Shown here piece after piece: positions 8,251 to 43,215 of a DNA stretch of 64,000 nucleotides (position 1 is its first letter; each line of letters begins with the position of its first letter). The stretch comes from Acidobacteria bacterium RIFCSPLOWO2_12_FULL_65_11. Its GTDB lineage: Bacteria; Acidobacteriota; Vicinamibacteria; Vicinamibacterales; CAVVIG01. The position numbers and the translations under genes are program-made. The stretch covers positions 933 to 64,932 of the forward strand of contig MELA01000141.1 of NCBI GenBank assembly GCA_001767495.1, read 5' to 3'. The notes under the pieces are model-generated. The model was not told where the DNA came from and ran no database searches. It saw nothing but the letters and a program-made list of their open reading frames with translations.

Positions 8251-8311
8251 TGGTGTCCGCCTTCAGGCGGACCGTGGCTCGCGGGGGTCCGGCTGAAACC
8301 GGACACTACAG
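8251..8311. repeat. REP-like hairpin dimer (Q forward + P reverse)
   Basis: GTGTCCGCCTTCAGGCGGAC ... GTCCGGCTGAAACCGGACACTAC. The terminal CTA (8306-8308) is the kinase stop codon (TAG on the minus strand). Confidence 0.9.
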
Positions 8312-13876: not shown

Positions 13877-13929
13877 AATGTAGTGTCCGGCTTCAACACT
13901 AAATGTAGTGTCCGGCTTGAGCCGGACCT
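13877..13929 (+). repeat. REP-like unit P with partial tandem duplication
   Basis: AAATGTAGTGTCCGGCTTCA / ACACT / AAATGTAGTGTCCGGCTTGAGCCGGACC. Confidence 0.85.
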
Positions 13930-16656: not shown

Positions 16657-16665
16657 CGCGCGCTC

Positions 16666-17877
16666 GTGGATCGTCCGACGCTGGAGGTGGCGGACATCTT
16701 CCGTCGCTACGGCGACACCTATCGGGACGCGGCCGGTTCCTCACTCTCGACCGCTCAGCGGCGGGTGATGACCGCGATCGAGACATGCCGCACCGCCGCC
16801 CTCGGCGGGCACGTCGAGCAGTGCGACACGTGTGGCCACCAGCGCATCGCCTACAACTCGTGTCGGAATCGCCACTGTCCGAAAGGCCAATCGCTTGCTC
16901 GCGCCGCGTGGATCGAGCCGCGCACGGCCGAAGTGCTCGAGTGCGCATACGTTCACGTCGTCTTCACGATCCCTGCGTCGATCGCCGCCATTGCGCTCCC
17001 GAACAAAGCGGTCGTGTACCGGATCCTCTTTCGCGCGACGGCCGAGACCCTCCGGACCATTGCGGCTGACCCCCGGCATCTCGGCGCACAAATCGGGTTC
17101 TTCGCTGTGCTTCATACGTGGGGCCAGACGCTGGTCCATCATCCGCATCTGCACTGCGTCGTGCCGGGCGGCGGTCTCTCGTCCGATGGCACCCGCTGGA
17201 TCGCCTGTCGCCCGGGGTTCTTGCTGCCCGCCCGGGTGCTGTCACGCCTCTTCCGCCGGGTATTCCTGCAACAACTTCAGGCGGCGTTCACGGTCGGCCC
17301 GCTCACCCTGACGGGCTCGCTTCAGGCGCTCCGCGATCCGGACGCCTGGGCGCGCTATCTGGCACCGGTGCGGCAGACCGAGTGGGTCATCTACGCCAAG
17401 CGGCCTTTTGCCGGCCCGTCACCGGTCCTCGACTATGTCGGTCGGTACACGCATCGGGTCGCCATCTCGAACGATCGGATCCGGGAGATCGACGACGATG
17501 ACGTCCGCTTTACCGATAAGGACTACCGGGCGAGTCCCGCGCAGTCCGTGAAACCGATCACGCTTGCCGCCACCGAATTCATTCGCCGCTTTCTGTTACA
17601 CGTGCTGCCTTGGGGCTTTCACCGGATTCGGTATGACGGCTTCCTCGGTCCTCGCCATCGGGCCGAGAAGCTCTCACGCTGCCGCCAGCGTTTGGCGTCC
17701 ACCCCGACGCCCGCCACCTCGCCGGCCACCGTGACCGCCGCCGCTGACCCGCCGCGCCTTGCTGTCCGGGCACGCGTCTCGATGCGCCTATGCCCGGCCT
17801 GTGGGCGAGGTCACCTGATCGTGCTCGACCAACTGCCGCCCACCGCCCGTCCCTCGCTCATCCCGGATACGTCGTGA
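16666..17877 (+). CDS. IS91-family (Y2 HUH, rolling-circle) transposase
   Basis: N-terminal Zn-binding CDTCGH..CRNRHCPKG. HUH region LHTWGQTLVHHPHLHCVV. Tyr motif YVGRYTHRVAISNDRI. C-terminal CPACG. Confidence 0.9.
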   Translation: MDRPTLEVADIFRRYGDTYRDAAGSSLSTAQRRVMTAIETCRTAALGGHVEQCDTCGHQRIAYNSCRNRHCPKGQSLARAAWIEPRTAEVLECAYVHVVFTIPASIAAIALPNKAVVYRILFRATAETLRTIAADPRHLGAQIGFFAVLHTWGQTLVHHPHLHCVVPGGGLSSDGTRWIACRPGFLLPARVLSRLFRRVFLQQLQAAFTVGPLTLTGSLQALRDPDAWARYLAPVRQTEWVIYAKRPFAGPSPVLDYVGRYTHRVAISNDRIREIDDDDVRFTDKDYRASPAQSVKPITLAATEFIRRFLLHVLPWGFHRIRYDGFLGPRHRAEKLSRCRQRLASTPTPATSPATVTAAADPPRLAVRARVSMRLCPACGRGHLIVLDQLPPTARPSLIPDTS

Positions 17878-18410
17878 CATCCCCCATCCTCACTCACGGG
17901 CGTGCGTCACACGCGCCACTGCCGCGTCACGCATCTCGTGTGTCTCGATCAGGACTCGCCGTGCGTGCCACCGCCACCCCACACGATCCGATTGCGTCGC
18001 GGCGCACTTCTGCGCCCCTCCTCTCCACATCGCCCTCTGGCTCCCACGTCTCTGCTCGATGTCCAGTCCTTCGCCGAGGTCCCACGTCATTCAATGCCCA
18101 TAGCCGACGCATCCGGCTAGCGGTTTCGTCCCATCCGTTTTTCAGTCACCGGCGCGGCGAGCGCACACCTCTCCACCTCCCAACGCTCTCGCGCCGCGCC
18201 GCCGACCGAAAAACGCTCTGGATTAGGACCGTCTGGGAGTTAGCATAACGCCCGTTCTCAGATCCGCTCCCCCTCCGACAGCGCGGATTGGCTGTCCCTG
18301 AAGCGCCGATTGTGAGACTCCCGCGAGGGATCGTCAAGCACCAGAAGCCTCGTGTGAGGCGTGGCGGCGCCCACGGGCACACCTCCGGCGCGCTGACGCG
18401 TCCGCCATCG

Positions 18411-19502
18411 TCAGGAGCACGGGTCGAACATCGGGGTCTCGTCGCCTACAAGGTCGGCATCCCGCGCGGTGAGCGGCGGCGCGCGGGCAGGACGCGGCGC
18501 GGGAATCTCGGCGGGCAGATCCAGATGATGCAGGATCCGCTCGATCACCGCCGCCTGCTCGATGAGCGCCACCAGGCGCAGCCGGCCGCCGCACCGCGGG
18601 CAGGCCAGCACGTCGAACCCGAACGTCCGGCTCATCAAGTCGGCCCACAGCCGGTTGTGCCCAGGGCCCCGAGCCGCCGTCGGCGTGTCGCGCGGACCGT
18701 GTGGCGTCGGACGAGACGCGATCGCCCCGGCGTCACGACCTGTCGCGGTCGTGTGCGTGACGACCGCCGACCGCCACGCCGCCCGCGGCGCCAGGACGCC
18801 GTGATAGAGAATCAGATTGATCCGCGGCCGCGGCACAAGCACCGCCAGGCGTCCCAGAAAGTCGAGCGGATCCCCCTCCAGGTGCGTCGTGCCATCCGCC
18901 CACCGATGCCGGAGCTGAAGCCGCACGCGCCCGTCGACCGTCACGCTGAGCCGTTCTCGCGCCACGGGCGGACGCAACGCATAGCGACACACCGCCTCGA
19001 GCCGCGCCCGCTGCCCGGCCGGCACCGGCGCTTCGGCCGCCCAGGCGTCCTCCTCGCTGGCCTCGTCGCGATCCCCGAGCCCGCGCCGATCGAGCACGCG
19101 CCTGATCCCCGGCTCTACCGTGGCCAGCACCTCCGCCACATCCAGATCCGTGAGGCGAGGCGCCGGGTGAAACGCCAGAGCACCCGCTTCGTCCCTCGCG
19201 AAGACGCCGTCCACCACGAGCGCGTGGATGTGCACGTTGAGATTGAGCGCGCCCCCGAACCGCTGGACGATCGCGACCGCGCCCCCGCGGCCGTCCTGCA
19301 CGCCGTCCCATCGCGCGCGGCCGCGCAGCCAGCCGCACCGCAGAAAGGATCGGAACTCCTGCTCGACAAATCGCGGCAGCCCGTCCCCGTCGCGCAGACT
19401 CGCGGCCTGCACGCGGAAGGTCTCGAACTGCTCCCGCACGACCTGGTACAGCACGCTCCCGGCAGGACTCCGCGGTTCGTAGCGGACCGATGGCAGCGCC
19501 AC
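18411..19502 (-). pseudogene. second, divergent IS91-family transposase with internal deletion of the Zn-binding segment
   Basis: Retains FLRCG, NLNVHIHALVVDGV (HUH), CRYALRPPVARERL and C-terminal ACPRCGG..ILHHLDLP. The sequence jumps from FLRCGWLRG directly to AVAIVQRFG. Confidence 0.6.
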
Positions 19503-19658
19503 GCGCCGCGCTGTGGCGAGCGGCGTGCCAACGAGTGACGGCCGGAATCGCTGGACTTCCGGACGATCGGGTCCGCGAAGGTGGCAGTTTCTGCGTACGC
19601 GAACATGGTGGCGTCGGCAGATTCTCTGGCGACAACGCTGGAGCCGTCGTACGGGACA

Positions 19659-22013
19659 ATGATGAGGATGGCTTCAAAGGACCCTGTGTGTGGGATGAGC
19701 GTCAGGCCGGACAGTCCCCACCGGCTCGAGTACGCGGGCGATACCTATCTTTTCTGCTGCGCCGGGTGTCTGGCGAAATTCCGCGACAACCCGACACGGT
19801 ACTTGGAAACGGTTTCGCACCACGTGGGGGCCGGCTTCAGCCGGACCGAAGTCCGCCTGAAGGCGGACGCCACGATAGCTTCGAAACTCTCTGCCGGGAT
19901 GACCTACACATGCCCGATGCACCCCGAGATCGTCCGCAGCGCCCCCGGCCCATGTCCCCTCTGCGGGATGGCGCTCGAGCCCCGCACGGTGACAAGTGCA
20001 GCCGAGGAGCAGAATCCCGAGCTGCGGGACATGACGCGCCGCCTCTGGATCGCGACAGCCCTTACGGCACCGCTCCTGATCTCGGTGATGAGCGACATGC
20101 TGCCGGGAGCCGGGACGCTCTTTTCGATGTCCATGAGGACGCAGATGCTCCTCGACCTCGCTCTGGCCACACCGGTGTGCATCTGGGCCGCATGGCCCTT
20201 TTATGAACGTGCCGTGTCGTCGGTCGTCCACCGCAGCCTGAACATGTTCACGCTCATCGGGCTCGGCGTCAGCGTCGCGTACGTCTACAGCCTCGTCGCG
20301 ACCCTCTTTCCGGAGATCTTTCCGGATTCCTTCCGCGCGGAAGGCGAGGTTGCCGTCTACTTCGAGGCCGCCGCCGTCATCACGACGCTCATCCTCCTTG
20401 GCCAAGTGCTCGAGCTGCGCGCGAGAAGCCACACGAGCGCTGCGATCAGAGAGTTGCTAGGCCTGGCGCCGAAGACGGCGCGGCGGCTTCGCGAGGACGG
20501 ACTCGACGAGGACGTTCCGCTCGAGACGGTGCAGGTCGGCGACCGGTTGCGCGTGCGACCGGGCGAGAAGGTGCCGGTCGATGGCGTCGTCCTCGACGGA
20601 CACAGCCATGTGGACGAGTCGATGATCACCGGCGAGCCCATGCCCGTGGAGAAACAGTCGGGGGACCGCGTGGTCGGCGCGACGATGAACGGCACCGGCG
20701 GCCTGGTGATACGCGCGGAGAAGGTCGGGGCCGAGACGCTCCTGGCGCGCATCGTCGCCATGGTGGCCGAGGCACAGCGCAGCCGGGCACCGATTCAGAA
20801 GCTCGCGGACGTCGTCTCGGGCTACTTCGTGCCAATCGTCATCCTGACCGCCGTCGTCACGTTCGTCGTGTGGGGACTCGTCGGACCGGAGCCTCGAATG
20901 GCGCATGCGCTCATCAATGCCGTCGCGGTGCTCATCATCGCCTGCCCATGTGCGCTCGGACTGGCCACGCCGATGTCGATCATGGTGGCGACGGGCAAGG
21001 GCGCGACGATGGGTGTGCTCTTCAGGAACGCGGAGGCCATCGAGATCCTGCGCAAGGTGGACACGCTGGTGGTCGACAAGACGGGCACGCTCACCGAGGG
21101 CAAACCGAAGCTGGTGAGCGTCACGCCGGCCCCGGGCGTCAAAGAAGATGAACTACTTCGCCTGGCGGCCAGCCTCGAGCGAGGGAGCGAGCACCCACTC
21201 GCGGCCGCCATCGTCAGAGGCGCCGAGGCCAGAGGCCTCGAGCTGGCCGACGCCGAGCGATTCGAGTCGATCACTGGAAAGGGCGTGAAGGGACGCGTCG
21301 AGGGCCATGATGTGGCGCTCGGAAACAAGGCGTTGCTCGAAAGTCTCGGCATCGAGGCGCGACCGCTCGTGGAGCGCGCCGAAGAACTCCGGGCGGATGG
21401 GCAGACAGTCATGTTCGTCGCGATTGACCGCAGCGCGGCAGGCCTTCTGGGCGTGGCCGATCCCATCAAGGAGAGCACGCCCGACGCGATTGCGGCATTG
21501 CACAAAGACGGCGTCCGCCTGGTGATGCTGACGGGCGACAGCCAGACGACGGCCCAGGCGGTCGCCCGGAAGCTTGGCATAGACGAAGTGATGGCCGAGG
21601 TGCTGCCGGATCAGAAGGCCGACAAGGTCAAGCGCCTCCAAGCCGAGGGCCGGGTCGTCGCGATGGCGGGCGACGGCATCAACGATGCGCCGGCGCTCGC
21701 CCAGGCACACGTGGGCATTGCGATGGGCACCGGCACGGATGTCGCGATGGAAAGCGCGGGCGTGACGCTCGTGAAGGGCGACCTTCGTGGCATCGCACGG
21801 GCGCGCGGCCTCTCGCGACAGACGATGCGCAACATCAAGCAGAATCTGTTTTTCGCGTTCGTTTACAACACGGCGGGTGTGCCCATCGCCGCCGGTGTGC
21901 TCTATCCGGCGTTCGGCCTCCTTCTGAGCCCCATCATCGCTGCGGCCGCCATGAGCTTCAGCTCGTTGTCGGTGGTCGCCAACGCCCTCCGTCTTCGTCG
22001 AGCGGGCGTTTAG
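19659..22013 (+). CDS. copA: copper-translocating P1B-1 P-type ATPase with N-terminal TRASH/YHS and YTCPMHPE metal-binding modules
   Basis: [18 protein letters not shown] (TRASH), [21 protein letters not shown] motif ([13 protein letters not shown]), [17 protein letters not shown]. Start ATG 19659 is tentative. Confidence 0.92.
19829..19868 (+). repeat. REP-like P/Q hairpin dimer inside the copA reading frame
   Basis: GGCCGGCTTCAGCCGGACC GAA GTCCGCCTGAAGGCGGAC translated in frame as [14 protein letters not shown]. Confidence 0.85.
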
Positions 22014-22017
22014 CGCG

Positions 22018-22368
22018 TCACCTCCGGCGCCGGCGCTTGATTGGCGGATAGGTGACACTGGTCCACCGGTCTGTCACGTCGGCAATCGAGTCGAGCGCTT
22101 CCCGCACGCGCACCAACTCATGGCGCGACATCTGATATTCGGCCGGTTGCTGCTGTTGGGTTTCCGCCACGAGCATCGAGATTGGCACCGCGAGCGCCTT
22201 TGCCACGCGGTCGAGGGTCAGGATCGTCGGATTCGCGTCGCCCCGTTCGATTTCGCCGACGAACTTATAGCTGAGGCCGGATCGTTCGGCGAGCTGTTCC
22301 TGAGTGAGACGCCGCCGGGCGCGCAAAGCCTTGACGGCGGCGCCTACGTGTGTCCGGATATCGGTCAA
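22018..22368 (-). CDS. XRE-family helix-turn-helix transcriptional regulator
   Basis: LTQEQLAERSGLSYKFVGEIERGDANPTILTLDRVAKAL is a canonical Cro/C1 HTH. Confidence 0.85.
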   Translation of the reverse strand: MTDIRTHVGAAVKALRARRRLTQEQLAERSGLSYKFVGEIERGDANPTILTLDRVAKALAVPISMLVAETQQQQPAEYQMSRHELVRVREALDSIADVTDRWTSVTYPPIKRRRRR

Positions 22369-22444
22369 ATGGCAGGAGCCTCCCTCGTCGAATTATGGGA
22401 AGGCCCTCTGGCTATAAAACCCACTATACGTACTACATCGTAGG

Positions 22445-22711
22445 ATGTTTACGTGCTACACTCCGCGGGCGATGACCGCCGAGCAGAATCTCGCCGCACC
22501 GTCGTCGAACGCGCGTGAGTGGCAGGCCTTTGTCGACGCGCTCCAGGTGTTAGTCCTCGTCGCCGATGCGGCGGCGCGTCGACTTACGGAGCGCGCCGAG
22601 GTCGAGGCGTGCGGAGACGTCGTGGCCGCAACGAACCGCGTCCTGGAACTGACACCTCGCGTGCTGAAGACACTGCGAACTGCCGCTAGAGCGCCATCCC
22701 GGACAGCTTGA
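22445..22711 (+). CDS. hypothetical small protein divergent from the XRE regulator
   Basis: 88-codon ORF with high GC3. No family recognised. Its 3' end overlaps the cusA relic antisense. Confidence 0.4.
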   Translation: MFTCYTPRAMTAEQNLAAPSSNAREWQAFVDALQVLVLVADAAARRLTERAEVEACGDVVAATNRVLELTPRVLKTLRTAARAPSRTA

Positions 22712-22754
22712 GGGCGCCCTTCCTGAGCGCCCGCAGCTTCATGATGTAGAAAAT
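22686..22754 (-). pseudogene. relic of the 3' end of a cusA-like RND gene (22 codons plus stop)
   Basis: Reverse translation IFYIMKLRALRKGALKLSGMAL* versus the 35278-38429 C-terminus IFYIMKLRALRKGTLKVSGMA*. About 50/60 nt identical by eye, and similarity stops abruptly upstream. Confidence 0.7.
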
Positions 22755-22825
22755 GCGGTCGGCAACGCGAAGTGACGCTCGCGGTGGTGGATCCTTTGGA
22801 CCGGCGCGTGGTATAAGGAACGTCG

Positions 22826-23128
22826 ATGCGCCGATGGCTGTTGTTAGCCGTGCTCGCCTTGTTGATCGCCGATGCGGGTGGACTCACCGCCTTCGCGGAG
22901 ACAGAAGCGTGCGCCTTGACTTCAACAACCGATCGCGGCCCGGACGGAACCTGTCCGACGTTTTGCGTCCGTTGCGGTTGTTGCGCGACTCCCATCCTTC
23001 ACTCCGTTCTTGACGTCGTCGCCACGTTCATCCCACCCGTCGTCGCCCTGCCACAAGCGGCAACCACCGGGCTGCCGTCCGCTATGGGTTCTGAGATCCT
23101 TCACGTCCCCAAACTCCGTCTCGCGTAG
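22826..23128 (+). CDS. small secreted Cys-rich protein leading RND operon 1
   Basis: Signal peptide MRRWLLLAVLALLIADAGG. Six Cys in EACALTSTTDRGPDGTCPTFCVRCGCC. Tail TGLPSAMGSEILHVPKLRLA. Confidence 0.55.
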   Translation: MRRWLLLAVLALLIADAGGLTAFAETEACALTSTTDRGPDGTCPTFCVRCGCCATPILHSVLDVVATFIPPVVALPQAATTGLPSAMGSEILHVPKLRLA

Positions 23129-23130
23129 CT

Positions 23131-23230
23131 ACAGCGTTTTTCACAACGCCGTAGTACGTAGTGTCCGGCTTTAGCCGGACCAGCGGGCGGTCCGCCTGAA
23201 GGCGGACACTACAGCGTTGTGAAAAGCGCA
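23131..23230 (+). mobile_element. MITE-like element: REP P/Q hairpin pair between 19-nt terminal inverted repeats (copy A)
   Basis: Identical over all 100 nt to the reverse complement of 60686-60798, apart from a 13-nt duplication in that copy. Ends are GCGTTTTTCACAACGCCGT and ACAGCGTTGTGAAAAGCGC. Confidence 0.8.
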
Positions 23231-23280
23231 TTAGACACACACAGTTCGACCGTCTATCCGTTTTTTTCGCAAGGAGCAGT

Positions 23281-24504
23281 ATGTCCAGTCGCTGTGTATG
23301 GGCGGTGGGTGTGGCGGCGTTTGTCTGCGGTGGGACCGCTGCAAGCGGCCAGTCCACGCTGACCTATCAACAGGCTCTCACGATGGCGCGAGAACGCGCG
23401 CCGAGGGTCGCGATTGCCAGAGCGCGCATTGACGAAGCGCGAGGTCGAATTGTCGGCGCGCGGATGAGGTTTCGCGACAACCCGGTCCTCGATGTCTCTG
23501 CAGGCCCGCGGACACTGGAAAGCGAGACGGTGACCGACTTCGAGCTCGGTATCAATCAGATTGTCGAGCTCGGCAATCGTCGGACGGCTCGCATCGACGC
23601 GGCTGAAGCCTCGGTCGTGCGCGAAGCCGCGACATCGGACGCCACCATTCGCCAACTCATCCGTGATGTCGCGGTCAGCTTCGTCCGCGGGCAGCAGGCC
23701 CAGGCGCGGCTCGATGTCCTGCGTGCTGCGGAGTCGGTGGCGAAAGACGCCTTGGATGCAGCTGACCGCCGCTATCGGGCCGGCGACGTCGCCGTGCTTG
23801 ACGTCAACGTCGCCCGGGCCTCGGTGGCCCGCGCCACTGCACACGTGCGGGTCGCGGACGCAGACCGCGCAGCGGCGGTCGGTGAGCTGAAAGCACTGCT
23901 GGCGTGGACGGAGGGCGCGGATCCAGCGGTCGAAGGCGACCTGCGCGATCGCATTCGGGACGGACTCGCCGTGCAACTCCTGCCAGCCAACGAGCGGCCG
24001 GAAGTCAGGATGCTCCTGGCGGAAGCGGCGGAAGCGCAGGCTGACGTCAGGCTCGGACAAGGACTCAAGAAACCCGATCTGGGGTTTGGGCTGCGGTTCG
24101 AGCGTGAAGAAGGACATCGAGCTGCCGCCGCGGGTTTTTCAATCGGGCTTCCGCTCTTCAGCAAGGGCCAGGAGCAGATGGCGACCGGTCTGGCGCGGGC
24201 CAGCCGAGCGGAGCTGGAACGCGGCGTGGTCGTCACGGAGCTGGAGCTTCGAGCTCGGTCGGCACAGACGGTCTTTCAGATGCGTCTGGCCGCCGCCGAG
24301 CCACTCCAACGCGACGTCTTACCGGGTCTTGAGGAGAACGAGCGTCTGGCCCGACGCAGTTTTGAGGTAGGCGAACTGAGTCTGCCCGATCTACTCGTCA
24401 TTCGTCGTGAATTCGTCGACACGCGCCTGCAACTCGTGGATGCGCTCGCAGACGCCGCAATCGCGTCGATCGACCTGCAGGCCGCAGCGGGGGTACTCCG
24501 ATGA
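23281..24504 (+). CDS. TolC-family outer-membrane efflux protein (CzcC/CusC-like), operon 1
   Basis: AAGGAG RBS, signal peptide and two OEP repeats. ATGA overlap with the downstream adaptor. Confidence 0.85.
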   Translation: MSSRCVWAVGVAAFVCGGTAASGQSTLTYQQALTMARERAPRVAIARARIDEARGRIVGARMRFRDNPVLDVSAGPRTLESETVTDFELGINQIVELGNRRTARIDAAEASVVREAATSDATIRQLIRDVAVSFVRGQQAQARLDVLRAAESVAKDALDAADRRYRAGDVAVLDVNVARASVARATAHVRVADADRAAAVGELKALLAWTEGADPAVEGDLRDRIRDGLAVQLLPANERPEVRMLLAEAAEAQADVRLGQGLKKPDLGFGLRFEREEGHRAAAAGFSIGLPLFSKGQEQMATGLARASRAELERGVVVTELELRARSAQTVFQMRLAAAEPLQRDVLPGLEENERLARRSFEVGELSLPDLLVIRREFVDTRLQLVDALADAAIASIDLQAAAGVLR

Positions 24505-25694
24505 CAACACGACTCGCGGTTCACGTACTGCTGCTCCCGGCCGCACTGAGCGTCTGGGGCTGTCGATCCGACTCGCCCTCGGCCGAGCCGGGCCGTTCAG
24601 CGGCGGCCGCCGAAACGGCCGAGACGGCCAAGACAGCAAATCCTCTGTCGCTGCAGATCGACCGAGAAATGCTGCGGGATCTGCGGATCACCACGACGAA
24701 GACAGAGGTCCGGCCGGCCGGTGAAGCGATCAGTGTTCTGGGCGAGTTGCGTGTGGACGAGAGGCGTTATGCCGAAGTGGGCTCGCCCATCACCGCCCGA
24801 GCCGTCCGACTGCTCGCCTCCCTTGGTGACACCGTTATCGCAGGGCAAGCGCTTGTCGAGCTTCAGAGCGGCGACCTTGCCAAAGCTCGCGCCGATTTCG
24901 CGGTGGCGGCAAGTCGCGTCGAGCTCACGCGCCGCGTGCTGGTCAGAAGGCGTGATTTGGCCGCGGAACGAATTACGCCGGAACGCGAAGTTGAGGAGGC
25001 TGAATCGCAATTGTCGGTTGCCGAGGCTGAGCTGCGCTCAGCTCGCGCCGCGTTGCAGGCGCTCGGTGTCGCCGCCGACGAGCCGTCCGACGAGCCATCG
25101 CACTTCACACTGCGGACACCCATTGCAGGAACCGTCATCGAACGATCGCTCGCGATCGGCCAGATGGTCGATCCCGCCAAGCCGCTGTTCGAAATCGCCG
25201 ACTTGTCCCGATTGTGGCTGATCGTCCACGCCTTCGAGCGGGACGCCGTGCGGGTGAAGGTCGGCGCCGCTGCGCGCGTCACCCTACCGGCGATGCCCGG
25301 CCGCACGTTCGGCGGCACCGTCACGCTCGTCGGAAGCCGCGTGGACGCCGATTCTCGAACCGTTCCTGTCAGGCTCGAATTGGCGAACCCCGGTCAGACA
25401 TTGCGGCCCGGCATGTCAGCCACTGCGGCCATCCTGCTCTCGGAGACCGCGGGCAGAATTCTGACCGTGCCGGTCGCCGCCTTGCAGCGGGTGCAGGACC
25501 AGTGGGTGGTGTTCATCCCGCAGTCCGAAGGCGTGTTCGACATCCGGGCGGTCGGGCGTGGACGCGATCTGAACGGCGAGGTCGAGATTCTGACGGGCTT
25601 GCGGCCCGACGATACCGTCGTCGTCGACGGAGCGTTCCTCCTCAAGGCTGAAGCCGACAAAGCTCGCGGTGCCGGCGAACACGAGACGCACTGA
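24501..25694 (+). CDS. efflux RND periplasmic adaptor (HlyD/CzcB family), operon 1
   Basis: Lipoyl/barrel-sandwich signature (LVELQSGDLAKA, RTPIAGTVIERS), coiled-coil hairpin, C-terminal beta-barrel. Confidence 0.88.
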   Translation: MTTRLAVHVLLLPAALSVWGCRSDSPSAEPGRSAAAAETAETAKTANPLSLQIDREMLRDLRITTTKTEVRPAGEAISVLGELRVDERRYAEVGSPITARAVRLLASLGDTVIAGQALVELQSGDLAKARADFAVAASRVELTRRVLVRRRDLAAERITPEREVEEAESQLSVAEAELRSARAALQALGVAADEPSDEPSHFTLRTPIAGTVIERSLAIGQMVDPAKPLFEIADLSRLWLIVHAFERDAVRVKVGAAARVTLPAMPGRTFGGTVTLVGSRVDADSRTVPVRLELANPGQTLRPGMSATAAILLSETAGRILTVPVAALQRVQDQWVVFIPQSEGVFDIRAVGRGRDLNGEVEILTGLRPDDTVVVDGAFLLKAEADKARGAGEHETH

Positions 25695-25699
25695 CGACC

Positions 25700-28782: not shown

Positions 28783-28804
28783 GTGAGCTGGCCTCTCAGC
28801 TCAC
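28783..28804. terminator. hairpin between the convergent RND genes (candidate bidirectional terminator)
   Basis: GTGAGCTG-GCCTCT-CAGCTCAC is a perfect 8-bp stem overlapping the stop codon of the minus-strand RND gene. No U-tract. Confidence 0.4.
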
Positions 28805-31800
28805 CGCATACGCGCAGGCTCGACCTTCCCGTATCGCAGGTACAAGGTCGGCACCACGATCATATTGAGCAACGTAGAGGTCGTGAGGCCGCAGAGGATC
28901 ACGATCGCCATCGGCGTCTGGATCTCGCTGCCGCTCCGGCCGCCACCGAGCGCGAGCGGAACGAGCGCCAGCCCCGCCGCCATCGAGGTCATGAGGATCG
29001 GCACGAGCCGCTCCTGAGCCCCCCGTTCCACAGCCTCGCGGACATTGGTGACGCCCTCCACCTCCATCAGATGCCGGATGTGCGAGACGAGCATGATGCC
29101 GTTGCGCGTGGCGATACCAAAGAGTGTGATGAAGCCGATCATCGACGCGACGCTCAGCACGCCCCCGGATAGAAACACGCCAGCGACACCGCCAATCAGC
29201 GCGAGCGGGAGGTTGATCATGATCAGCACGGCGTCGCGCGATCGCCCGAACGCGAGCACCAGCAGCATAAAGAGGCCCGCCACGACCCCGACGCCGAGCA
29301 CCAGCAGCCGTTGCGACGCACTCTGCTCGCTCTCGAACTGACCGCCGTACTCGACGCGATACCCGGCGGGCATCGGCACCGATTGCCCGACCGCCGTTCG
29401 GATGTCGTCCACGACGCTGCCCAGATCTCGGCCGGCGACGTTGCTCGAGACGACGATGCGGCGCTGGACGTTCTCGCGGAGAATCATGTTCGGGCCCTGC
29501 TCGCGCCTGACGTCGGCGAGCACGCGGACCGGCACCGGTACCCCAGCAGGCGTATCGATCGGTAAGTCGGCGATCCGCTCGAAGTCAACGCTGCTCGCCC
29601 CATCAAATTTTACGACCAGGTCGAAGGCTGTGCCGCGGTCGAAAATGCGTCCCACGGTGGCGCCCGCGAAGCTCGTCTCAACGGCTTGGGCGACATCGTC
29701 GGCCCGCAACCCGTAGCGCGCAATCGCCCCTCGATTGAGCACGAAGCGCACAAACGGCACGTCCATCTGTTGTTCGAGAGAGAGGTCCGCCACGCCCGGC
29801 ACCGCCGTCATCGCGCTCTGCACACGCTCGCCCAGCCGTCGCAGGGTGCCCAAGTCGTCGCCAAACACCTTCACGGCGATGTTGGCGCGCGTGCCCGAGA
29901 GCATGTGGTCGATGCGATGCGAGATCGGCTGGCCAATCGTGACGTTCGTCCCAGGCAACGTGGAGAATCCACGACGCAATTCCGCCAGCAGTTCCGCACG
30001 AGGACGACCTGTTTCGCGCAGACCGACGTCGATCTCGGCGGCTTCGACGCCCTGCACGTGCTCGTCGAATTCGGCGCGACCGGTCCGCCGCGCGGTCGCG
30101 ACGACCTCCGGCTGCGCCAGCAGAATCTGTTCGACGCGACCGCCAATCTCGTCCGCCTTGGCCAACGACGTTCCCGGCAGCGTGTTGGCCTGAATCGTCA
30201 GGCTGCCTTCGTGGAAGTCTGGGAGGAACGCCGTGCCCGCGCGCGTCATGGCAACGGCGGCTCCGACGAGCAGAACCGCCGCCACGGCTGTCACGGCGAA
30301 CGGGTGATCCAGAGCGAACGGGAGAACGCGCGCGAATCGGGTCTTCAGCGTGCGCGCCAGCCAGCCGTCGTGTCCGCGCGCGATGGATCGCGCCTTGGGT
30401 AGAAACGCGAACGACAGCGCGGGCGTGACGACGATGGCGACGATGAGCGACGCCAGGAGCGACACGATGTAGGCGAAGGCCAACGGCGCGAGCAGCCGTC
30501 CCTCGACTCCCGACAGTCCGAAAATGGGCAGAAACACGAGCACGATGATGATGGTCGCGAAGACAATCGATGTGCGGATCTCAATCGTGGCGTCTCGGAC
30601 GACGTCACGGCTCGGTCGCCGCTCGGCCTCGGGCCTCGCCTGATTCTCACGCAGGCGTCTCACGACGTTTTCCACGTCGATGATGGCGTCGTCGACCAGC
30701 GCGCCAATCGCGATGGCCATGCCCCCGAGCGTCATCGTGTTGATGGTGGCGCCAAAGGCGCGAAGCACGAGGATCGCGGCGGCCAGCGACAGAGGCATCG
30801 CCGTCAGCGTGATCGCGGCCGCGCGCATGTTGGCGAGAAACAGCAGGACGATCGCGACGACGAGCAGCCCGCCGTCACGGAGCGCGTTGACGACGTTGCG
30901 GACCGCGACCTCGATGAAGTCGGCCTGCCTGAAGATGCGACGGTCGATCGTCATGCCCTCAGGCAGCTCGCGCTGCAAGGCGTCGAGCTCGCGATCGAGG
31001 CGCGCGGTCAGCTCGAGCGTATTGGCGCCCGGCTGCTTCTGGACGCCGACGATCACCGCCGGCTTGCCGCTGCGGGATCCTTCACCCCGCTTGAGGGCGC
31101 CGCCTTCACGCACCTCCGCCACGTCGCGAATCAGGACCGACCGCGACCCGCGAAGGGCGACGACGCTGCCGCCGATCTCCTCCGGGCTGCGGACGCGTCC
31201 GATGGTTTGCAGGACGTACTCCTGCGGCCCCTCCGTGTAGATTCCGGCGGAGGTGTTCTGGCTTGCGCCGCGCGCCGCGTCCAACAACTCGGTCAGCGAG
31301 ATGCGGTTCGCCCGAAGCTGTTCTGGGTGCGCGATGATCTGAAATTGCCGTTCGGCGCCGCCGATTGGCGTCACTTGAGACACACCGGTGACGGCGAGGA
31401 GCCGCCGGCGCACGACGGTATCGGCGATCGTGCGAAGCGCCAGCGGATCGTCGGCGTCGGAGGAGATCGCAAAAAACAGGATTTCGCCCATGATCGAGGA
31501 GATGGGCGCCAGGATCGGCCGCTCGACCTGAGGCGGCAGGCTGCCGCTCACAAGCGTCAGCTTTTCGGCCACGACCTGCCGCGCGGCGAAGATGTCTGTC
31601 CCCCACTCAAACTCCACCCACACGACGGCGATGCCGACGGCCGTGGCCGACCGCACCCGACGCACGCCCGATGCGCCGTTGATGGCGCTCTCGAGCGGAA
31701 ATGTCACGAGCGACTCCATCTCGTCTGGCGCCATCCCGTGGCCTTCGGTGAGAATCGTCACCGTCGGCGCCGTCAGATCCGGAAAGACATCCACCGGCAT

Positions 31801-31896
31801 GTCGCGCGCCGTCCAGGCCCCACCGGCGAGCAGCAGGACCGAGAAGGCCAGCACCATCCAGTGATGATCGATCGACCATTGAATCAGTCGTTTCAT
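28801..31896 (-). CDS. CusA/CzcA-family heavy-metal efflux RND permease, operon 2
   Basis: 1031 aa. TM4 motif GGMAIAIGALVDDAIIDVEN differs from both the CusA-type VDAAIV and the CzcA-type DFG-DGA motifs. Confidence 0.93.
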   Translation of the reverse strand: MKRLIQWSIDHHWMVLAFSVLLLAGGAWTARDMPVDVFPDLTAPTVTILTEGHGMAPDEMESLVTFPLESAINGASGVRRVRSATAVGIAVVWVEFEWGTDIFAARQVVAEKLTLVSGSLPPQVERPILAPISSIMGEILFFAISSDADDPLALRTIADTVVRRRLLAVTGVSQVTPIGGAERQFQIIAHPEQLRANRISLTELLDAARGASQNTSAGIYTEGPQEYVLQTIGRVRSPEEIGGSVVALRGSRSVLIRDVAEVREGGALKRGEGSRSGKPAVIVGVQKQPGANTLELTARLDRELDALQRELPEGMTIDRRIFRQADFIEVAVRNVVNALRDGGLLVVAIVLLFLANMRAAAITLTAMPLSLAAAILVLRAFGATINTMTLGGMAIAIGALVDDAIIDVENVVRRLRENQARPEAERRPSRDVVRDATIEIRTSIVFATIIIVLVFLPIFGLSGVEGRLLAPLAFAYIVSLLASLIVAIVVTPALSFAFLPKARSIARGHDGWLARTLKTRFARVLPFALDHPFAVTAVAAVLLVGAAVAMTRAGTAFLPDFHEGSLTIQANTLPGTSLAKADEIGGRVEQILLAQPEVVATARRTGRAEFDEHVQGVEAAEIDVGLRETGRPRAELLAELRRGFSTLPGTNVTIGQPISHRIDHMLSGTRANIAVKVFGDDLGTLRRLGERVQSAMTAVPGVADLSLEQQMDVPFVRFVLNRGAIARYGLRADDVAQAVETSFAGATVGRIFDRGTAFDLVVKFDGASSVDFERIADLPIDTPAGVPVPVRVLADVRREQGPNMILRENVQRRIVVSSNVAGRDLGSVVDDIRTAVGQSVPMPAGYRVEYGGQFESEQSASQRLLVLGVGVVAGLFMLLVLAFGRSRDAVLIMINLPLALIGGVAGVFLSGGVLSVASMIGFITLFGIATRNGIMLVSHIRHLMEVEGVTNVREAVERGAQERLVPILMTSMAAGLALVPLALGGGRSGSEIQTPMAIVILCGLTTSTLLNMIVVPTLYLRYGKVEPARMR

Positions 31897-31918: not shown

Positions 31919-32044
31919 AGAGGTCCGGCTGAAGCCGGACACTACAACGTTATAGAGGTCCGGCTGAAGCCGGACACTACAACGTTATAGATGCAGTGTC
32001 CGGCTTCAGCCGGACCGGATGTAGTGTCCGGCTTTAGCCGGACC
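31919..32044. repeat. array of four REP-like P units (2 direct 35-nt repeats, then 2 inverted copies) between adaptor and pump genes
   Basis: AGAGGTCCGGCTGAAGCCGGACACTACAACGTTAT x2 (31919-31953, 31954-31988). Then GTGTCCGGCTTCAGCCGGACC (31996-32016) and GTAGTGTCCGGCTTTAGCCGGACC (32021-32044). Confidence 0.92.
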
Positions 32045-32048
32045 GTGA

Positions 32049-33605
32049 TCAGTGCACGTGGCCCTCGGCCGGCAGCCCCCTGGCCGCCGACGCCAGTTGG
32101 ATGTCGTAGGCGCCGCGCGTGACGACGCGGTCGCCGGTCCGCAGCCCGCTCTTCACGCCAATCCAATCTCCGTCTTGCGCCGCGATCTCCACGTAGCGAC
32201 GCGCGAATCGCTCGCCGCTCACGTGCACGAACACGTAGGGCCGGCCGGCTTCGATGAGCATTGCGGCTCTGGGGACCGCGGGTACGCGCTGACGCAGACG
32301 TTGATACAGCACGGCCGTGCCGGTCTGACCGACGAGCAACTGTCCCCGCGGATTGTCGACTTCGAACTGGATTGGCAGCGCGTGTGTCGCGGGATCGATG
32401 ACGCCGGCGTCGTGGATGTGATGAGGCTGAAGGACCAGCGCGTCGGCGCGGCCGGCAATCTCGAGCGCCAGCCCTGTGATGTCTCGTGCCAGGGACGCAT
32501 CGGCCGCCGGAACCTGCGCCTGGAGCGCGACGCGATCGGTCCGGACGATCCTGAAGAGCGGCGCGCCTTCCTCGTACGACGCGCCACGCGTGGCAAACAC
32601 CTCTGTCACGCGGCCGGCGATAGGCACTCGCAGGACAAAGGCGTTGCCGGCCGCGGCGCCCCCGCCCGTGCCGAGCGTCTCGTCCCGCTGGGCCAGTCGC
32701 GCCTCGGCCGCCCGCAGACGCGCCTCGGCCACCGCAACCGCCCGGCGCGCATCCTCGACCCGTCTGGCTGGGACCGCACGATCGGCGAGCAGGCGTTCGG
32801 CCCGTGCCTGTTCCGCCCGGGCGGCTTCGGTCGCGGCCTGCGCTTCGGTGACGGCCGCCGCCAGGGTCGCGCGATCGTCGCCGGCCGCCAGGCGCGGCTC
32901 GATGCGTCCAAGCGCCTGATCCGGGCGCACAGCGGCCCCGACCGACATCAACTCGTCGGCCATGAACCGGCCGGCAGCAGGCGCAGCGACAATCGCTTCG
33001 CCGCCGGTCAGCGGCTCGATCGCCGCAGGAACCCGGATGGCGGTTCGCAGCTCGACTTCGCGGACCAGTTCGGTCGCAAAGTCGTTGGTCCACTGCTGTT
33101 CCTTCAGATAGGCGATGGCGGTGGGGTCGTCGGCCGGCCGCTCGACGGCGTCCTCGTTGGCGGCGCGGTCGTCGGCAAACACGGTGACTGCACCAAGCTC
33201 GTGGCGATCCGACAGGCCGGGCGCCTCCACGATCACTCTCCAGCGATATCGGCCGGCCGCGGGCGGTGCGCCTTCGACGCGGAAGGCGCCGGGCCGGGAC
33301 GGCTCCAAGCCGTTCAGCACGACGGGGGGACCGCCGCCCTCCGGTGTGAACTCGATCCGTGACCGCCCGGCGCCCAGCGGCTTGAAGTCGCCGAGCATCG
33401 TCAGGTGCACGGCAAAGAGCGCGGGCCGATCGGCGACGAGCCGCGGATACTCCATGTAGAGCTCCGTCTTGTCCGTCCAAGCGGTCACGTTCAACGAGGC
33501 CGGCTCGGTTTCGACCGGTGCACTTCGCGGGCCGCACGCCACGTTCAATATGGTGGCGAAGATCGCAGCGGCGATCGTGGTGACAGGGGCGCGTTGTGTC
33601 GTCAT
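32049..33605 (-). CDS. efflux RND periplasmic adaptor with extra N-terminal beta-rich domain, operon 2
   Basis: ATG 33605 gives an ATGA overlap with the upstream OMF gene. About 170 aa of extra N-terminal sequence precede the HlyD-type core (PIAGRVTEVF, coiled coil). Confidence 0.85.
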   Translation of the reverse strand: MTTQRAPVTTIAAAIFATILNVACGPRSAPVETEPASLNVTAWTDKTELYMEYPRLVADRPALFAVHLTMLGDFKPLGAGRSRIEFTPEGGGPPVVLNGLEPSRPGAFRVEGAPPAAGRYRWRVIVEAPGLSDRHELGAVTVFADDRAANEDAVERPADDPTAIAYLKEQQWTNDFATELVREVELRTAIRVPAAIEPLTGGEAIVAAPAAGRFMADELMSVGAAVRPDQALGRIEPRLAAGDDRATLAAAVTEAQAATEAARAEQARAERLLADRAVPARRVEDARRAVAVAEARLRAAEARLAQRDETLGTGGGAAAGNAFVLRVPIAGRVTEVFATRGASYEEGAPLFRIVRTDRVALQAQVPAADASLARDITGLALEIAGRADALVLQPHHIHDAGVIDPATHALPIQFEVDNPRGQLLVGQTGTAVLYQRLRQRVPAVPRAAMLIEAGRPYVFVHVSGERFARRYVEIAAQDGDWIGVKSGLRTGDRVVTRGAYDIQLASAARGLPAEGHVH

Positions 33606-34828
33606 GAGGGAATCTCCCAACCGCTCAGAAACTCCAGTTCAATCTCCGCCTGCCGTGTCGCTGCATCGAGTGCGGCCTGACGGAGACGAGCAGAGGCGCC
33701 CGTTCGGTAGGCATCCAGCAGCTCGAGGATGCCGCGCTCGCCCGCGTCGTAGCTGACCTGCGCAATCCGCTCGATCCGATCGGCGCCGGCCACGGCCGCC
33801 GACCGATACCGTTCCGCTGCCTCGCGTCGTTCCACGACGACCGAGCGAAGTGCGGTGATCTCGGCCCGAAGGGCCACGCGGAAGGCCTCGACCCGTGCTT
33901 CGGCTTGTACGGCCTTGGCGCGCGCGAGGGCGCGTTCCGGGCGGGATCGGTCAAAGAGAGGAACAGTCGCCTGGATCATGACCACGCTTCCGAGGTCGCC
34001 GCCTCCAAGCGTCGACGACTTGGCCCCGGCCACGACCTCAGGATCGGGAATGCGCCGGCGCTCGGCGGCGCGTTCAGACAAGGACGCCGCGTCGATCTCC
34101 CTGCGCAGCGCGGCGAGCTCGCCGCGCCTCGATTCTGCCCGCTCCACCAGCGCCTCGATCGGCGGCAGAGACGGCCGCACGGTCGAGAGGTCCACCGCCT
34201 CGATCCGCGCAGCCTCGCGTGCATCCGCAAAGAAGCCGGCGAGAGCCGCCTGGGCCCACGCGCGATCCGTGGCGGCCACGGCGCGGTCGGCATCGAGGTC
34301 GAGCACCTCGCGCTCGGCGCGGAGCCGATCGAAGCCGGCCGCATCGCCGGCAGCCTCTCGCGTGGCGAGAACGCCGGCGAGGTCGCGCAACCGGTTCCGC
34401 GCCGCCGTCAGCTCGCGTTCGCGCACCTGCGCCGCGACGAGCTCGGCGAACGCCAGCCGCACGTCGGCTCGCGCGCGTCGGAGCTGGTCATCGACTCGGC
34501 TGGCGCTCGCTTCGGCCAGCGCGCCCGCGGCCTGAACCTGCAGCCCGCGATACCCGCTGATCGGCAGCGGCTGCGCCACCATCGTGATGGTTTCAGTGAC
34601 GCCGGTGACCGATTCTCGGTCGAACGTCACGCGCGGGTTCGGCCAGCGCCCCACCGTCAGGGCGTCGGCACGCGCGACGTCGACGACCGCGCGCATGGCC
34701 CGAACCCGCGGGCTGTTGGGGGAGAGCCGCGCCAGAACCTCGGATTCGGTCAGCGACAACGATTGGGCACCGGCCCTCGACGGCAGCCAGGCCGTCGCCA
34801 GCACGGCGCAGAGCACCACTGCGCGCAT
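33602..34828 (-). CDS. TolC-family outer-membrane efflux protein, operon 2
   Basis: Signal peptide MRAVVLCAVLATAWLPSRAGAQ. Two OEP repeats. Confidence 0.85.
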   Translation of the reverse strand: MRAVVLCAVLATAWLPSRAGAQSLSLTESEVLARLSPNSPRVRAMRAVVDVARADALTVGRWPNPRVTFDRESVTGVTETITMVAQPLPISGYRGLQVQAAGALAEASASRVDDQLRRARADVRLAFAELVAAQVRERELTAARNRLRDLAGVLATREAAGDAAGFDRLRAEREVLDLDADRAVAATDRAWAQAALAGFFADAREAARIEAVDLSTVRPSLPPIEALVERAESRRGELAALRREIDAASLSERAAERRRIPDPEVVAGAKSSTLGGGDLGSVVMIQATVPLFDRSRPERALARAKAVQAEARVEAFRVALRAEITALRSVVVERREAAERYRSAAVAGADRIERIAQVSYDAGERGILELLDAYRTGASARLRQAALDAATRQAEIELEFLSGWEIPS

Positions 34829-41414: not shown

Positions 41415-41442
41415 GTACGTAGTGTCCGGCTTCAGCCGGACC
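41415..41442 (+). repeat. REP-like unit P (forward)
   Basis: GTACGTAGTGTCCGGCTTCAGCCGGACC, lying between the small leader ORF and cusC. Confidence 0.9.
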
Positions 41443-41454
41443 AGGCAGCGAACG

Positions 41455-41862: not shown

Positions 41863-41896
41863 CGAACGCCGGGCCTGTCAAAATCAGGCCGGATTT

Positions 41897-41964
41897 GGTC
41901 CGCCTCAAGGCGGACGCTACATCAAGAGCCGGTCCGCCTGAAGGCGGACACTACACCAAGAGCG
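41897..41964. repeat. two tandem 34-nt REP-like Q units
   Basis: GGTCCGCCTCAAGGCGGACGCTACATCAAGAGCC / GGTCCGCCTGAAGGCGGACACTACACCAAGAGCG. The M23 peptidase stop codon (41922-41924) lies inside copy 1. Confidence 0.9.
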
Positions 41965-43163
41965 GCCATCGCACGATCGCGAACGGCGGCAAACGCCGCC
42001 ATCTGATCGGCAGGAACCGGAGCGGCCGGTGGTGTGTCGCGCACGGCCGTCAGCGGGTTGACGAACACGCCATTCTTCTTCACGCGGTAGTCGAGGTGCG
42101 GGCCGGTCGCGAGCCCGGTGGCGCCCACGCGGCCGATGAGGTCGCCCTGCGCGACGCGCGCGCCGGCACGCACGTCGATCGAGGACAGGTGCAGGTACTC
42201 GGTCTCGAAGCCGTTCCCGTGTCGCAGGTGGACCATCCGTCCCGACGCGCCGTTAGCGCCCGCCTGCACCACCACGCCGTCGGCCACGGCCACGACCGGC
42301 GCGCCCACCGGCGCCCGGTAATCGACACCGAGGTGCGCGCGCCGCTCGTGAAGGACCGGGTGCAGGCGGCTGCGGGAAAAACCCGACGAGACGGTCGGCT
42401 GAAACTTCAGCGGTGAGCGCAGCAGAAAGCGCCGCACCGACACGCCGCGCTCGTCGAAGTAGGCCGGCGAGCCACCCTCGGGGACAAAGCGCACGGCACG
42501 CAAGCGGCGACCGTCGTTGTTGAACTCGGCGGCCTGCAGGGGCCCGTAGCCCGCAAAGACATGCTGCTCGCGGAACTCGGTGTCGACCAGCACCCCGAAG
42601 GTGTCGCCGGGCTGAAGCTCGGTATTGAAGTCGATCTGACCGCTGAGGACGTCGGCAAGCGCGATCGCCAGCTCGGCTCTCCCCCCGCCGGCGCCTATCG
42701 CGCCGAAGAGCGAAGGGACGCTCGGCGTAATGATCCCCTGCACGACCTCGACGCTGATGGTCTTCGGGATCGGCAGCACTTCGGCCAGAAGCGCCGCGTC
42801 GCCGGTCGGGCGGCTCACCCGCAGGAAACGATCCTGGTCGATCTCGTACTCGAAACTCTTCAATCGACCGCCGGCCGCCCACCGCTCGATGCGGTAGGGT
42901 CGATCGGCGTGGACCTTCCGCACGTCGAACACCGCCTGCGCCCGCGCGAGGAGATCCGCGATTTCCTCGTCTGCCACGCGGCCGGCGTGCAGGAGCCCGC
43001 CGAGCGTCGCCCCCGCCGCGACGCGCGCCGAGACCGCGCGCATATCGGCCCTGAGATCGATGTCCTCGAGGTCACCGCGGGTCGCGCGCATACCGCGGTC
43101 GCCGGCCGGTCCGACGCAACCGGTTGCGGCCATACACATGACGATCAGGATTGAGTACCGCAT
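41922..43163 (-). CDS. M23-family metallopeptidase (possible lipoprotein)
   Basis: HLGVDYRAPVGAPV..GRMVHLRHGNGFETEYLHLSS HxxxD/HxH motifs. MRYSILIVMCMAATGC signal. The last 14 codons are REP-encoded. Confidence 0.88.
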   Translation of the reverse strand: MRYSILIVMCMAATGCVGPAGDRGMRATRGDLEDIDLRADMRAVSARVAAGATLGGLLHAGRVADEEIADLLARAQAVFDVRKVHADRPYRIERWAAGGRLKSFEYEIDQDRFLRVSRPTGDAALLAEVLPIPKTISVEVVQGIITPSVPSLFGAIGAGGGRAELAIALADVLSGQIDFNTELQPGDTFGVLVDTEFREQHVFAGYGPLQAAEFNNDGRRLRAVRFVPEGGSPAYFDERGVSVRRFLLRSPLKFQPTVSSGFSRSRLHPVLHERRAHLGVDYRAPVGAPVVAVADGVVVQAGANGASGRMVHLRHGNGFETEYLHLSSIDVRAGARVAQGDLIGRVGATGLATGPHLDYRVKKNGVFVNPLTAVRDTPPAAPVPADQMAAFAAVRDRAMAALGVVSAFRRTGS

Positions 43164-43215
43164 ACTCCCCAACCTATCGGACGCAGGCTCGCTCAAGCGT
43201 AGGCTCCCGGTGATT

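Follow-up and report, generated by a model that had tools for sequence, protein, structure and literature searches.

The locus described here raises the question of how a repetitive extragenic palindromic (REP) doublet came to lie within copA, a gene encoding a P1B-type heavy-metal ATPase, and whether the repeat has become part of the protein. The gene is found in a 64-kb stretch of DNA (64,000 nucleotides of contig MELA01000141.1, referred to throughout as the window) from the metagenome-assembled genome (MAG) of Acidobacteria bacterium RIFCSPLOWO2_12_FULL_65_11. A preliminary description of this DNA reported a REP dimer, composed of units P and Q, at 19829-19868 inside copA, and the sequence, the match to the family, the architecture and the tails of the element all agree with that report. 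Taken as a whole, the locus is best explained as a fossil REPIN (a REP doublet that forms a hairpin) that is carried in frame and tolerated in the disordered linker between the YHS and HMBD domains of a CopA-type ATPase, an explanation that we hold with high confidence.

The REP family is abundant in the window. Two 18-mer motifs, searched with up to two mismatches, gave 20 and 27 matches compared with 0.00 expected from 100 dinucleotide-preserving shuffles, and once the two strands are collapsed the family amounts to 20 units, distributed over 10 loci of the 64 kb. When their flanks are included, the copies give a canonical unit of GTAGTG-TCCGSCTTCAGSCGGA-CC, a GC-rich palindrome with 7-bp stems and a 4-nt loop that is present in many dispersed copies. 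The copies are mostly arranged as head-to-head doublets (for example 23163-23207, 51914-51955, 8255-8304 and 60709-60753) of the form GTAGTGTCCGGC..GCCGGACC-spacer-GGTCCGCC..GGCGGACACTAC, and the spacers in window doublets other than that in copA are 6-14 nt long. The family carries the GTAG tag, in that intergenic copies, where displayed together with their flanks, follow the pattern GTAGTG-TCCGSC...GSCGGA-CACTAC or close variants, and copies in metagenome sequences do likewise. It is also mainly extragenic. Nine of the loci lie between long open reading frames (ORFs), with gene boundaries taken from ORF lists and a few checked against Pfam, and the only gene-internal copy in the window is the one in copA.

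The copA copy reads GGCCGGCTTCAGCCGGAC-CGAA-GTCCGCCTGAAGGCGGAC at window positions 19829-19868 and agrees with the family motif at 39 of 40 nt. Its parts are as follows.

19822..19875, plus strand: the full REPIN-derived element, approximately 54 nt or 18 codons, as delimited by comparison with the intergenic doublets.
19829..19846, plus strand: the left REP unit P, GGCCGGCTTCAGCCGGAC, with one mismatch to the family motif GTCCGGCTTCAGCCGGAC.
19847..19850, plus strand: the 4-nt spacer CGAA, which is the loop of the long hairpin.
19851..19868, plus strand: the right REP unit Q, GTCCGCCTGAAGGCGGAC, identical to the family motif.

From 5' to 3', the element thus consists of a degenerate tag or tail CGTGGGG (canonical CGTAGTG), unit P, the spacer, unit Q, and a degenerate 3' tail GCCACG (canonical ACTACG), so that the copy with its tails is CGTGGGG...GACGCCACG. 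The layout of P followed by Q in inverted orientation matches that of the intergenic doublets at 23163-23207 and 51914-51955. The mismatch in the first stem, which had been noticed earlier as GGCCGGC in place of GTCCGGC, is real; it is a T to G change at 19830 that opens the second base pair of the stem of unit P. An insert of 14 residues had also been proposed. The insert is indeed a REP in frame, but its extent at about 19822-19875 makes it 18 codons long. A scan of the window with Rfam matched no family at the element.

Neither tag of the copA copy is intact, the sequence being GTGG at the 5' end and CCAC at the 3' end. This speaks against present mobility of the copy, but not against its origin as a REP. 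REP subfamilies with GTGG tags exist in the metagenome, with tails GTGGGG/CCCCAC (L110), GTGGCG/CGCCAC (L128) and GTGGTG/CACCAC. We considered whether the tails had undergone compensatory evolution in place, from GTAGTG/CACTAC to GTGGGG/C(G)CCAC. Pairing is kept across this change, but such tail subfamilies already exist in the metagenome and the candidate was set aside. Descent from a variant subfamily would be a simpler explanation of the tail changes than compensatory evolution inside copA.

The element lies within an uninterrupted reading frame of copA, whose relevant features are these.

19659..22013, plus strand: copA, P1B-type heavy-metal ATPase, with a likely start at ATG 19659; assigned from Pfam and motifs.
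19677..19808, plus strand: YHS (TRASH-like) metal-binding domain, upstream of the insert; Pfam YHS 4.2e-16, amino acids 33-76.
19809..19904, plus strand: interdomain linker hosting the element, between the Pfam domains; hypervariable in 120 homologues and modelled as coil.
19905..19982, plus strand: HMBD (YTCPMHPE...CPLCGM) metal-binding domain, downstream of the insert; Pfam HMBD 4.7e-13, amino acids 109-134.

The ORF at 19581..22013(+) has 810 codons, the first of them GTG 19581; in public annotation the gene for the protein P0001 (802 amino acids) is called from 19605. The N-termini of the orthologues align from the MM..DPVCGM region, which is the basis for placing the start at ATG 19659. 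In addition to the two N-terminal domains, Pfam identifies E1-E2_ATPase (3.4e-56) and Hydrolase (1.7e-34), and the translation contains the P1B ATPase core motifs ACPCALG (CPC), DKTGTLT (DKTGT) and GDGINDAP. The YHS and HMBD modules share the frame of this core. More than 100 homologues have 72-91% identity to the protein, and their sources name many of them as Cu+-exporting or heavy-metal-translocating ATPases. We assign the protein as a CopA-type P1B ATPase, with a putative specificity for copper.

The residues encoded by the element are amino acids 81-98 counted from GTG 19581 (H55/V56 to T72 counted from ATG 19659), and the insert as first delimited is placed at amino acids 82-96 in the former numbering. 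They are inside the YHS-HMBD linker, and the Pfam boundaries bear out the earlier placement of the repeat between two metal-binding modules. We modelled the N-terminal 174 residues with AlphaFold2, using an alignment of 80 homologous N-terminal fragments obtained from a 127-aa N-terminal protein search. The predicted local distance difference test (pLDDT) score is 95-98 for YHS and 92-94 for HMBD; for residues 51-80 it is 49-61, and no secondary structure is modelled there. Across the 120 best homologues, the linker ranges from approximately 16 to more than 80 residues with unrelated sequences, and some of these proteins have a second HMBD. The length range and the low-scoring coil are both in keeping with the proposal in the preliminary description that the linker is tolerant of insertion.

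A different public annotation begins downstream of the element. The NCBI protein P0002 (698 amino acids) starts at Met87 (19917; numbered from ATG 19659), which is inside the CPMH motif of HMBD and 15 codons past T72, leaving YHS and the insert unannotated. Because this start truncates the Pfam HMBD domain and disagrees with all orthologues, it is most likely mis-called, judging from the sequence comparison.

Comparison with orthologues identifies the REP segment as an insertion. P0002 (Acidobacteria bacterium RIFCSPLOWO2_12_FULL_65_11) and P0001 both have 100% identity to the window protein. P0001 is encoded on five metagenome contigs, and the gene context is the same in the four that were read. 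Among the homologues, the REP peptide is found only in P0004, which has 87-89% amino acid identity. The protein P0003, with 88-91% amino acid identity, has the linker EEPRAAAQPVVVVRKPQAAK and no REP. Taking one genome per species gave 80 orthologue loci, of which a single one, L010 from a Vicinamibacterales MAG, contains the REP doublet; L010 is 99.996% identical to L001, the locus of P0004. The insertion relative to orthologues that had been put forward earlier is therefore upheld by the alignment, the segment being absent from P0003 and from 78 other species-level loci. When the linker DNA of every orthologue was aligned locally to the doublet consensus and scored against shuffles, the alleles of the window and of P0004 reached z = 19-28 and the next best locus (L074) 4.1. 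We also considered the P0003 linker as a decayed REP; it fell outside the top 25 in this alignment and was rejected.

Other searches for the segment were negative. The REP peptide was absent from the matches of the 127-aa N-terminal protein search, all of them short and distant YHS-HMBD fragments. A HMMER search with the 31-aa linker against 1.84 billion representatives gave one match, P0241 (E = 7.8e-4), a repetitive surface protein in which the LDAGFSTTELRID motif occurs by chance. Scanning the metagenome for the doublet pattern recovered no further copies in copA.

It might be argued that the resemblance to REPs is coincidental, or an artefact of assembly, and that these residues are simply native linker. 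The preliminary description had itself named, as a sign of coincidence, an orthologue that carries the same residues in a genome lacking REPs. In formal terms P0004 is such an orthologue, as it has the residues and no other REP within 22 kb. However, the match to the family at 39 of 40 nt, together with the absence of any match in 100 shuffles, still excludes coincidence, and the element has the full doublet architecture with tails and is missing from all other orthologues. Since the match is so close and the chance expectation is zero, sharing by P0004 is better explained by shared ancestry or by transfer of a REP-bearing allele. As for an artefact, the identical sequence occurs in five independent assemblies (four metagenome assemblies and the NCBI MAG). 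This explanation is effectively refuted.

The insertion also appears to be old, as had been supposed. The G mismatch occurs in both the window copy and the L001 copy, as does the GTGGGG tail; the two copies are different at 3 of 51 aligned nt, and the second copA lineage that has these variants is 85% identical to the window gene at the nucleotide level. The genes of the window, P0003 and P0004 are about equidistant, at 83-85% nucleotide identity. Because the mismatch and tail are shared and the genes are about equidistant, it is simplest to derive the alleles of the window and of P0004 from one ancestor that received the insertion once. An alternative history is transfer of the N-terminal segment between the two lineages, because identity in codons 30-90 is 86% between the window and P0004 compared with 71% for either with P0003.

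Since the insertion, the flanking modules have remained under constraint. Between the window and L001, the differences at first, second and third codon positions are 3/2/13 for the YHS codons and 5/2/10 for the HMBD codons. This concentration at third positions argues that both modules were still coding after the insertion, and it indicates that YHS and HMBD have been under purifying selection at the protein level, with no stop codon between them.

A further explanation is that the element first lay in the intergenic DNA between a YHS gene and copA, and that fusion of these genes made it coding; the copies at the PxpB-PxpC junction described below perhaps arose likewise. REP doublets do occur at stop-free gene junctions, such as that of PxpB-PxpC in L105, L113 and L111, and REPs are known to prefer the 3' ends of genes (PMC3733652). 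However, an uninterrupted YHS-linker-HMBD-ATPase arrangement is present in 61 fetched loci from many phyla (the window itself and duplicates of its allele and of the P0004 allele are counted here). P0003, which has no REP and is as near to the window as P0004 is, is already fused, and no sampled orthologue has YHS and copA as two genes with a REP in between. With the fused architecture present across phyla and in P0003, the fusion long predates the REP, and we consider an origin of this kind very improbable.

We therefore return to insertion into an existing linker. A REPIN of two inverted GTAG-tagged REP units would have inserted into DNA encoding the flexible YHS-HMBD linker, and the presumed mover is a REP-associated tyrosine transposase (RAYT), which we assume by analogy with characterised GTAG REPs (PMC3733652, PMC3116915). 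The 54 nt of the element are a multiple of three and contain no stop in frame, because of which the insert would be translated as about 18 extra linker residues. The pump would have stayed functional because the linker, being disordered, can vary greatly in length, and we infer that the insert has been neutral. The insertion would be older than the split of the two copA lineages. The copy would now be a fossil, with GTAG changed to GTGG, CTAC to CCAC, and one stem base altered; because both terminal tags are mutated, it can probably no longer be mobilised, to judge from what is reported for GTAG REPs (PMC3733652). The stable hairpin in the mRNA or in single-stranded DNA would be an inherited property of the element and not a function acquired in copA.

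Several observations weigh against this explanation. The NCBI coding sequence (P0002) starts downstream of the element, and translation through the element is a prediction from the ORF. No clean empty site was found among the sampled orthologues; the closest REP-free one (P0003) has a different linker and not the same linker minus 54 nt. Extra deletions or other indels, or replacement of the linker, must therefore be assumed, which is unsurprising for so variable a linker. The 22 kb around the P0004 gene contain no other REP and no dispersed 14-mer repeats. The density of REPs in the window predicts 2.8 loci in a segment of this length, and the Poisson probability of finding zero is approximately 0.06; with such a REP-free flank, the allele may have moved horizontally in one direction or the other, and copA in the window has an integrase and two IS91-family transposase genes beside it. 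A motif scan of ORFs (HUH...Y..NP) found no RAYT in the 64-kb window, the mobilising enzyme being inferred. Finally, the REP part is more conserved than the adjacent 30-nt linker (3/51 compared with 11/30 nt different between the window and L001; Fisher P = 7e-4), which strict neutrality would not predict.

This last observation is one reason to consider co-option of the hairpin, which would then serve within the gene as a functional RNA or single-stranded DNA element. It might act as a translational pause, an effect raised in the preliminary description, that separates the folding or metal loading of YHS and HMBD, it might affect mRNA stability, or it might provide an internal start for an isoform without YHS. 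The 54-nt element is predicted to fold as a single long imperfect hairpin of -35.6 kcal/mol (z = -4.5), as expected of an inverted doublet, and the P0003 linker has no significant predicted structure (z = -0.4). The preliminary description had drawn attention to the local mRNA structure; a hairpin is indeed predicted, but it is one long hairpin and not only two small ones. In isolation, unit P, weakened by its mismatch, folds at -9.1 kcal/mol and unit Q at -12.4, which is the value for an intact unit. The predicted hairpin of the L001 copy has -38.9 kcal/mol, and at each of the three nucleotides by which this copy departs from that of the window the pairing is kept or improved. The greater conservation of the REP part compared with the adjacent linker is also seen at the amino acid level (Fisher P = 0.004), and compared with the rest of the gene the REP part again has fewer differences (3/51 nt against 15%, P = 0.037). 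The NCBI gene call, with its Met 15 codons after T72, would fit an internal start.

Against co-option, every intergenic copy has the same fold. The doublets at 23156-23214 and 51907-51962 form hairpins of the same shape at -40.0 and -32.6 kcal/mol, and the fold is therefore no evidence of a function acquired in copA. The two lineages that carry the element are too few for a covariation test, and the test at synonymous sites of the conserved REP codons is not significant (2/16 changed, P = 0.10). The GTGGGG/CCCCAC and GTGGCG/CGCCAC tails pre-exist as intergenic subfamilies in L110 and L128 and need not have arisen by compensation inside copA. Of the orthologue loci, 78 others function without the element. 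The hairpin is followed by GAUAGCUUCGAAAC and is not an intrinsic, Rho-independent terminator because it lacks a U-run. In the two lineages, selection on the hairpin and more recent shared ancestry of the REP part are not separable, and the conservation signal is a weak lead. On balance we regard co-option as unlikely; a role of the hairpin in translation or in the fate of the mRNA is possible, its support being limited to the structure prediction and the two-lineage conservation signal.

The REP family contributes coding sequence to other genes as well. Soil metagenome sequences were scanned for doublets with 4-nt spacing, and the resulting 54 loci were translated across and checked with Pfam. 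They include at least seven further gene families with the doublet in frame, at these positions.

L109: GltB, doublet between GATase_2 and the central domain.
L093, L102, L108, L136: PSD/DUF1592 protein, doublet between the signal anchor and the cytochrome c domain.
L104, L141: Thy1 protein, doublet inside the ORF, amino acids 97-110.
L105, L113, L111: PxpB-PxpC, doublet at the junction.
L132, L133, L139: FG-GAP protein, doublet just before the UnbV_ASPIC domain.
L125: LigA, doublet inside the adenylation domain.
L092: Porin_O_P protein, doublet after the signal peptide.
L090: Rhomboid, doublet directly in front of the domain; unclear whether coding.

The doublet can be read through without a stop in three of its six frames, each of which is in use, and a number of the in-frame inserts are common to diverged orthologues. 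Judged from these translated sequences, the REP family appears to contribute linker and loop peptides to proteins repeatedly. In-frame intragenic REPs had been called uncommon, which is overstated given these gene families and the intragenic dimers already reported (PMC3733652). A broader proposal would join the two lines of thought: REPINs would repeatedly supply linker and loop peptides to the housekeeping proteins (CopA, GltB, LigA, PxpB-PxpC, PSD-family, FG-GAP/UnbV, Thy1 and porin) of a soil acidobacterial lineage and persist there through speciation, and the copA hairpin, its REP part evolving more slowly than the linker, would be kept by selection, for instance as a translational pause between the two metal-binding modules. 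We give this joint proposal little credence; if it were true of the copA hairpin, the hairpin would be an intragenic RNA or DNA element.

Elsewhere in the window, one REP unit supplies the end of a gene. The unit at 41932-41949 encodes the last 10 codons (VVSAFRRTGS*) of a Peptidase_M23 protein (window 41922-41949 in ORF 41922..43196(-)), in which the Pfam domain occupies amino acids 287-381 of 424. The stop codon falls between this unit and another at 41898-41915. This is the second REP in the window that supplies coding sequence. A REP-flanked segment at 41442-41897 had no Pfam match in a run on 41490-41960.

Further arrangements of the family were observed. At 31923-32043, four REP units, two in each orientation, occupy the gap between ORFs 28801..31896(-) and 32049..33620(-). 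At 13880-13927, the 5' half of a truncated REP (GTAGTGTCCGGCTTCAAC) precedes a complete unit by 11 nt, which suggests a partial duplication or an aborted copy. There is also a longer composite in two near-identical copies, at 23118-23245 and, as the reverse complement, at 60676-60812. Each consists of a REP doublet inside an outer inverted repeat, AGCGTTTTTCACAACGC / GCGTTGTGAAAAGCGC, and the latter copy has an extra short tandem repeat (ACGTACTACGG) at 60754-60790. The outer arm of the composite is also present in metagenome locus L138. We considered whether the copA insert was this larger element, including the outer inverted repeat, and rejected it as the copA flanks align without convincing similarity. 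A different palindromic family (GGCCGGCTTCAGCCGGCC and GTCAGGCTGAAGCCTGAC) occurs at 6553-6666, 15006, 18444 and 18548 in L047, a Steroidobacter MAG, in the flanks of a distant copA orthologue. Its loop and stem core are as in the window REP; the outer stem bases differ.

The genes surrounding copA in the window are the following.

15775-16656: tyrosine integrase, upstream of copA.
16666-17877: IS91-family transposase with Zn_Tnp_IS91 and Y2_Tnp domains, upstream of copA.
18411-19502, minus strand: second, shorter Y2_Tnp gene, upstream of copA.
22018-22368, minus strand: helix-turn-helix (HTH) regulator, after copA.
23281-28771: czcC/B/A-like genes (czcCBA), after copA.

The block from the integrase to the czc genes, with copA, is also present on four metagenome contigs (L005-L008), and the region (15775-19502 and 22018-28771) resembles a mobile island for metal resistance. 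The loci of P0003 and P0004 have in common a context of CoA-ligase, Usp, P-type ATPase and DUF302 genes, unlike that of the window and free of transposase genes. The only match in the window at the level of the Rfam gathering score is a fluoride riboswitch (RF01734) at 52770-52840(+), with 36.6 bits compared with a gathering score of 34 (E = 1.7e-6).

The copA element appears to offer a clean, datable case in which a working protein has taken up a selfish palindromic repeat, and it suggests that the interdomain linkers of metal pumps can absorb such inserts over long periods. It would also explain the mis-called public start, the NCBI coding sequence beginning downstream of it and cutting HMBD. 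In general, masks for 'extragenic' repeats may hide real coding sequence. The in-frame copies in other gene families, several of them common to diverged orthologues, provide natural material on neutral and selected intragenic hairpins. No long-standing question is opened by this locus, and the list of other in-frame copies is the most useful by-product of the analysis.

The copA case is one more instance of a phenomenon described in other bacteria. GTAG-tagged REPs were defined by Di Nocera, De Gregorio and Rocco in 2013 (PMC3733652) as mostly extragenic elements, many of whose units are paired in opposite orientation. In several species a minority lie wholly inside ORFs, more than half of these as dimers that encode 20-30 amino acids. 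The same study reports a GTGG variant of the tag and cites evidence that cleavage by RAYTs needs the GTAG motif. The family described here is alike in its GC-rich palindrome, terminal tag, inverted pairs and intragenic dimers, a likeness of tag and architecture that was drawn without setting the sequence against the 24 GTAG families of that study. The REP that it reports inside DNA ligase has a parallel in metagenome locus L125. In contrast, the host here is a Vicinamibacteria-type acidobacterial MAG and the site is the linker of a P1B ATPase, whereas the study stresses genes of DNA replication and repair.

REPINs, which are REP doublets that form hairpins and are mobilised by RAYTs (Bertels and Rainey 2011, PMC3116915; PMC3337134), resemble the element in having inverted units, a short spacer, one long imperfect hairpin, and a dispersed population with variants within the genome. 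However, the described REPINs are extragenic, whereas the copA copy is predicted to be translated, has both tags mutated, and has no RAYT with it in the window.

The palindromic elements of Rickettsia (RPEs) that lie in frame within genes, reviewed in PMC10969869, comprise ten families of approximately 150 bp, and the intragenic RPE-4 and RPE-6 are of the CGTC type (PMC3733652). As in copA, a palindromic selfish repeat is found in frame, adds a peptide, and occupies a structurally permissive site. However, RPEs are unrelated in sequence and reside in a reduced intracellular genome, whereas the copA element is 54 nt long and of the GTAG type. The likeness is one of behaviour and not of family membership, the RPEs being set apart by their descriptions and not by alignment of RPE sequences. 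With these distinctions, the phenomenon known in Rickettsia and Opitutus would extend to carriers of this REP family, the MAG of the window being acidobacterial.

Finally, among CopA-type P1B ATPases with YHS and HMBD domains, the order of YHS, a variable linker, HMBD and the ATPase core is common to more than 100 homologues. The REP-derived segment of the linker is found only in the window allele and in P0004.

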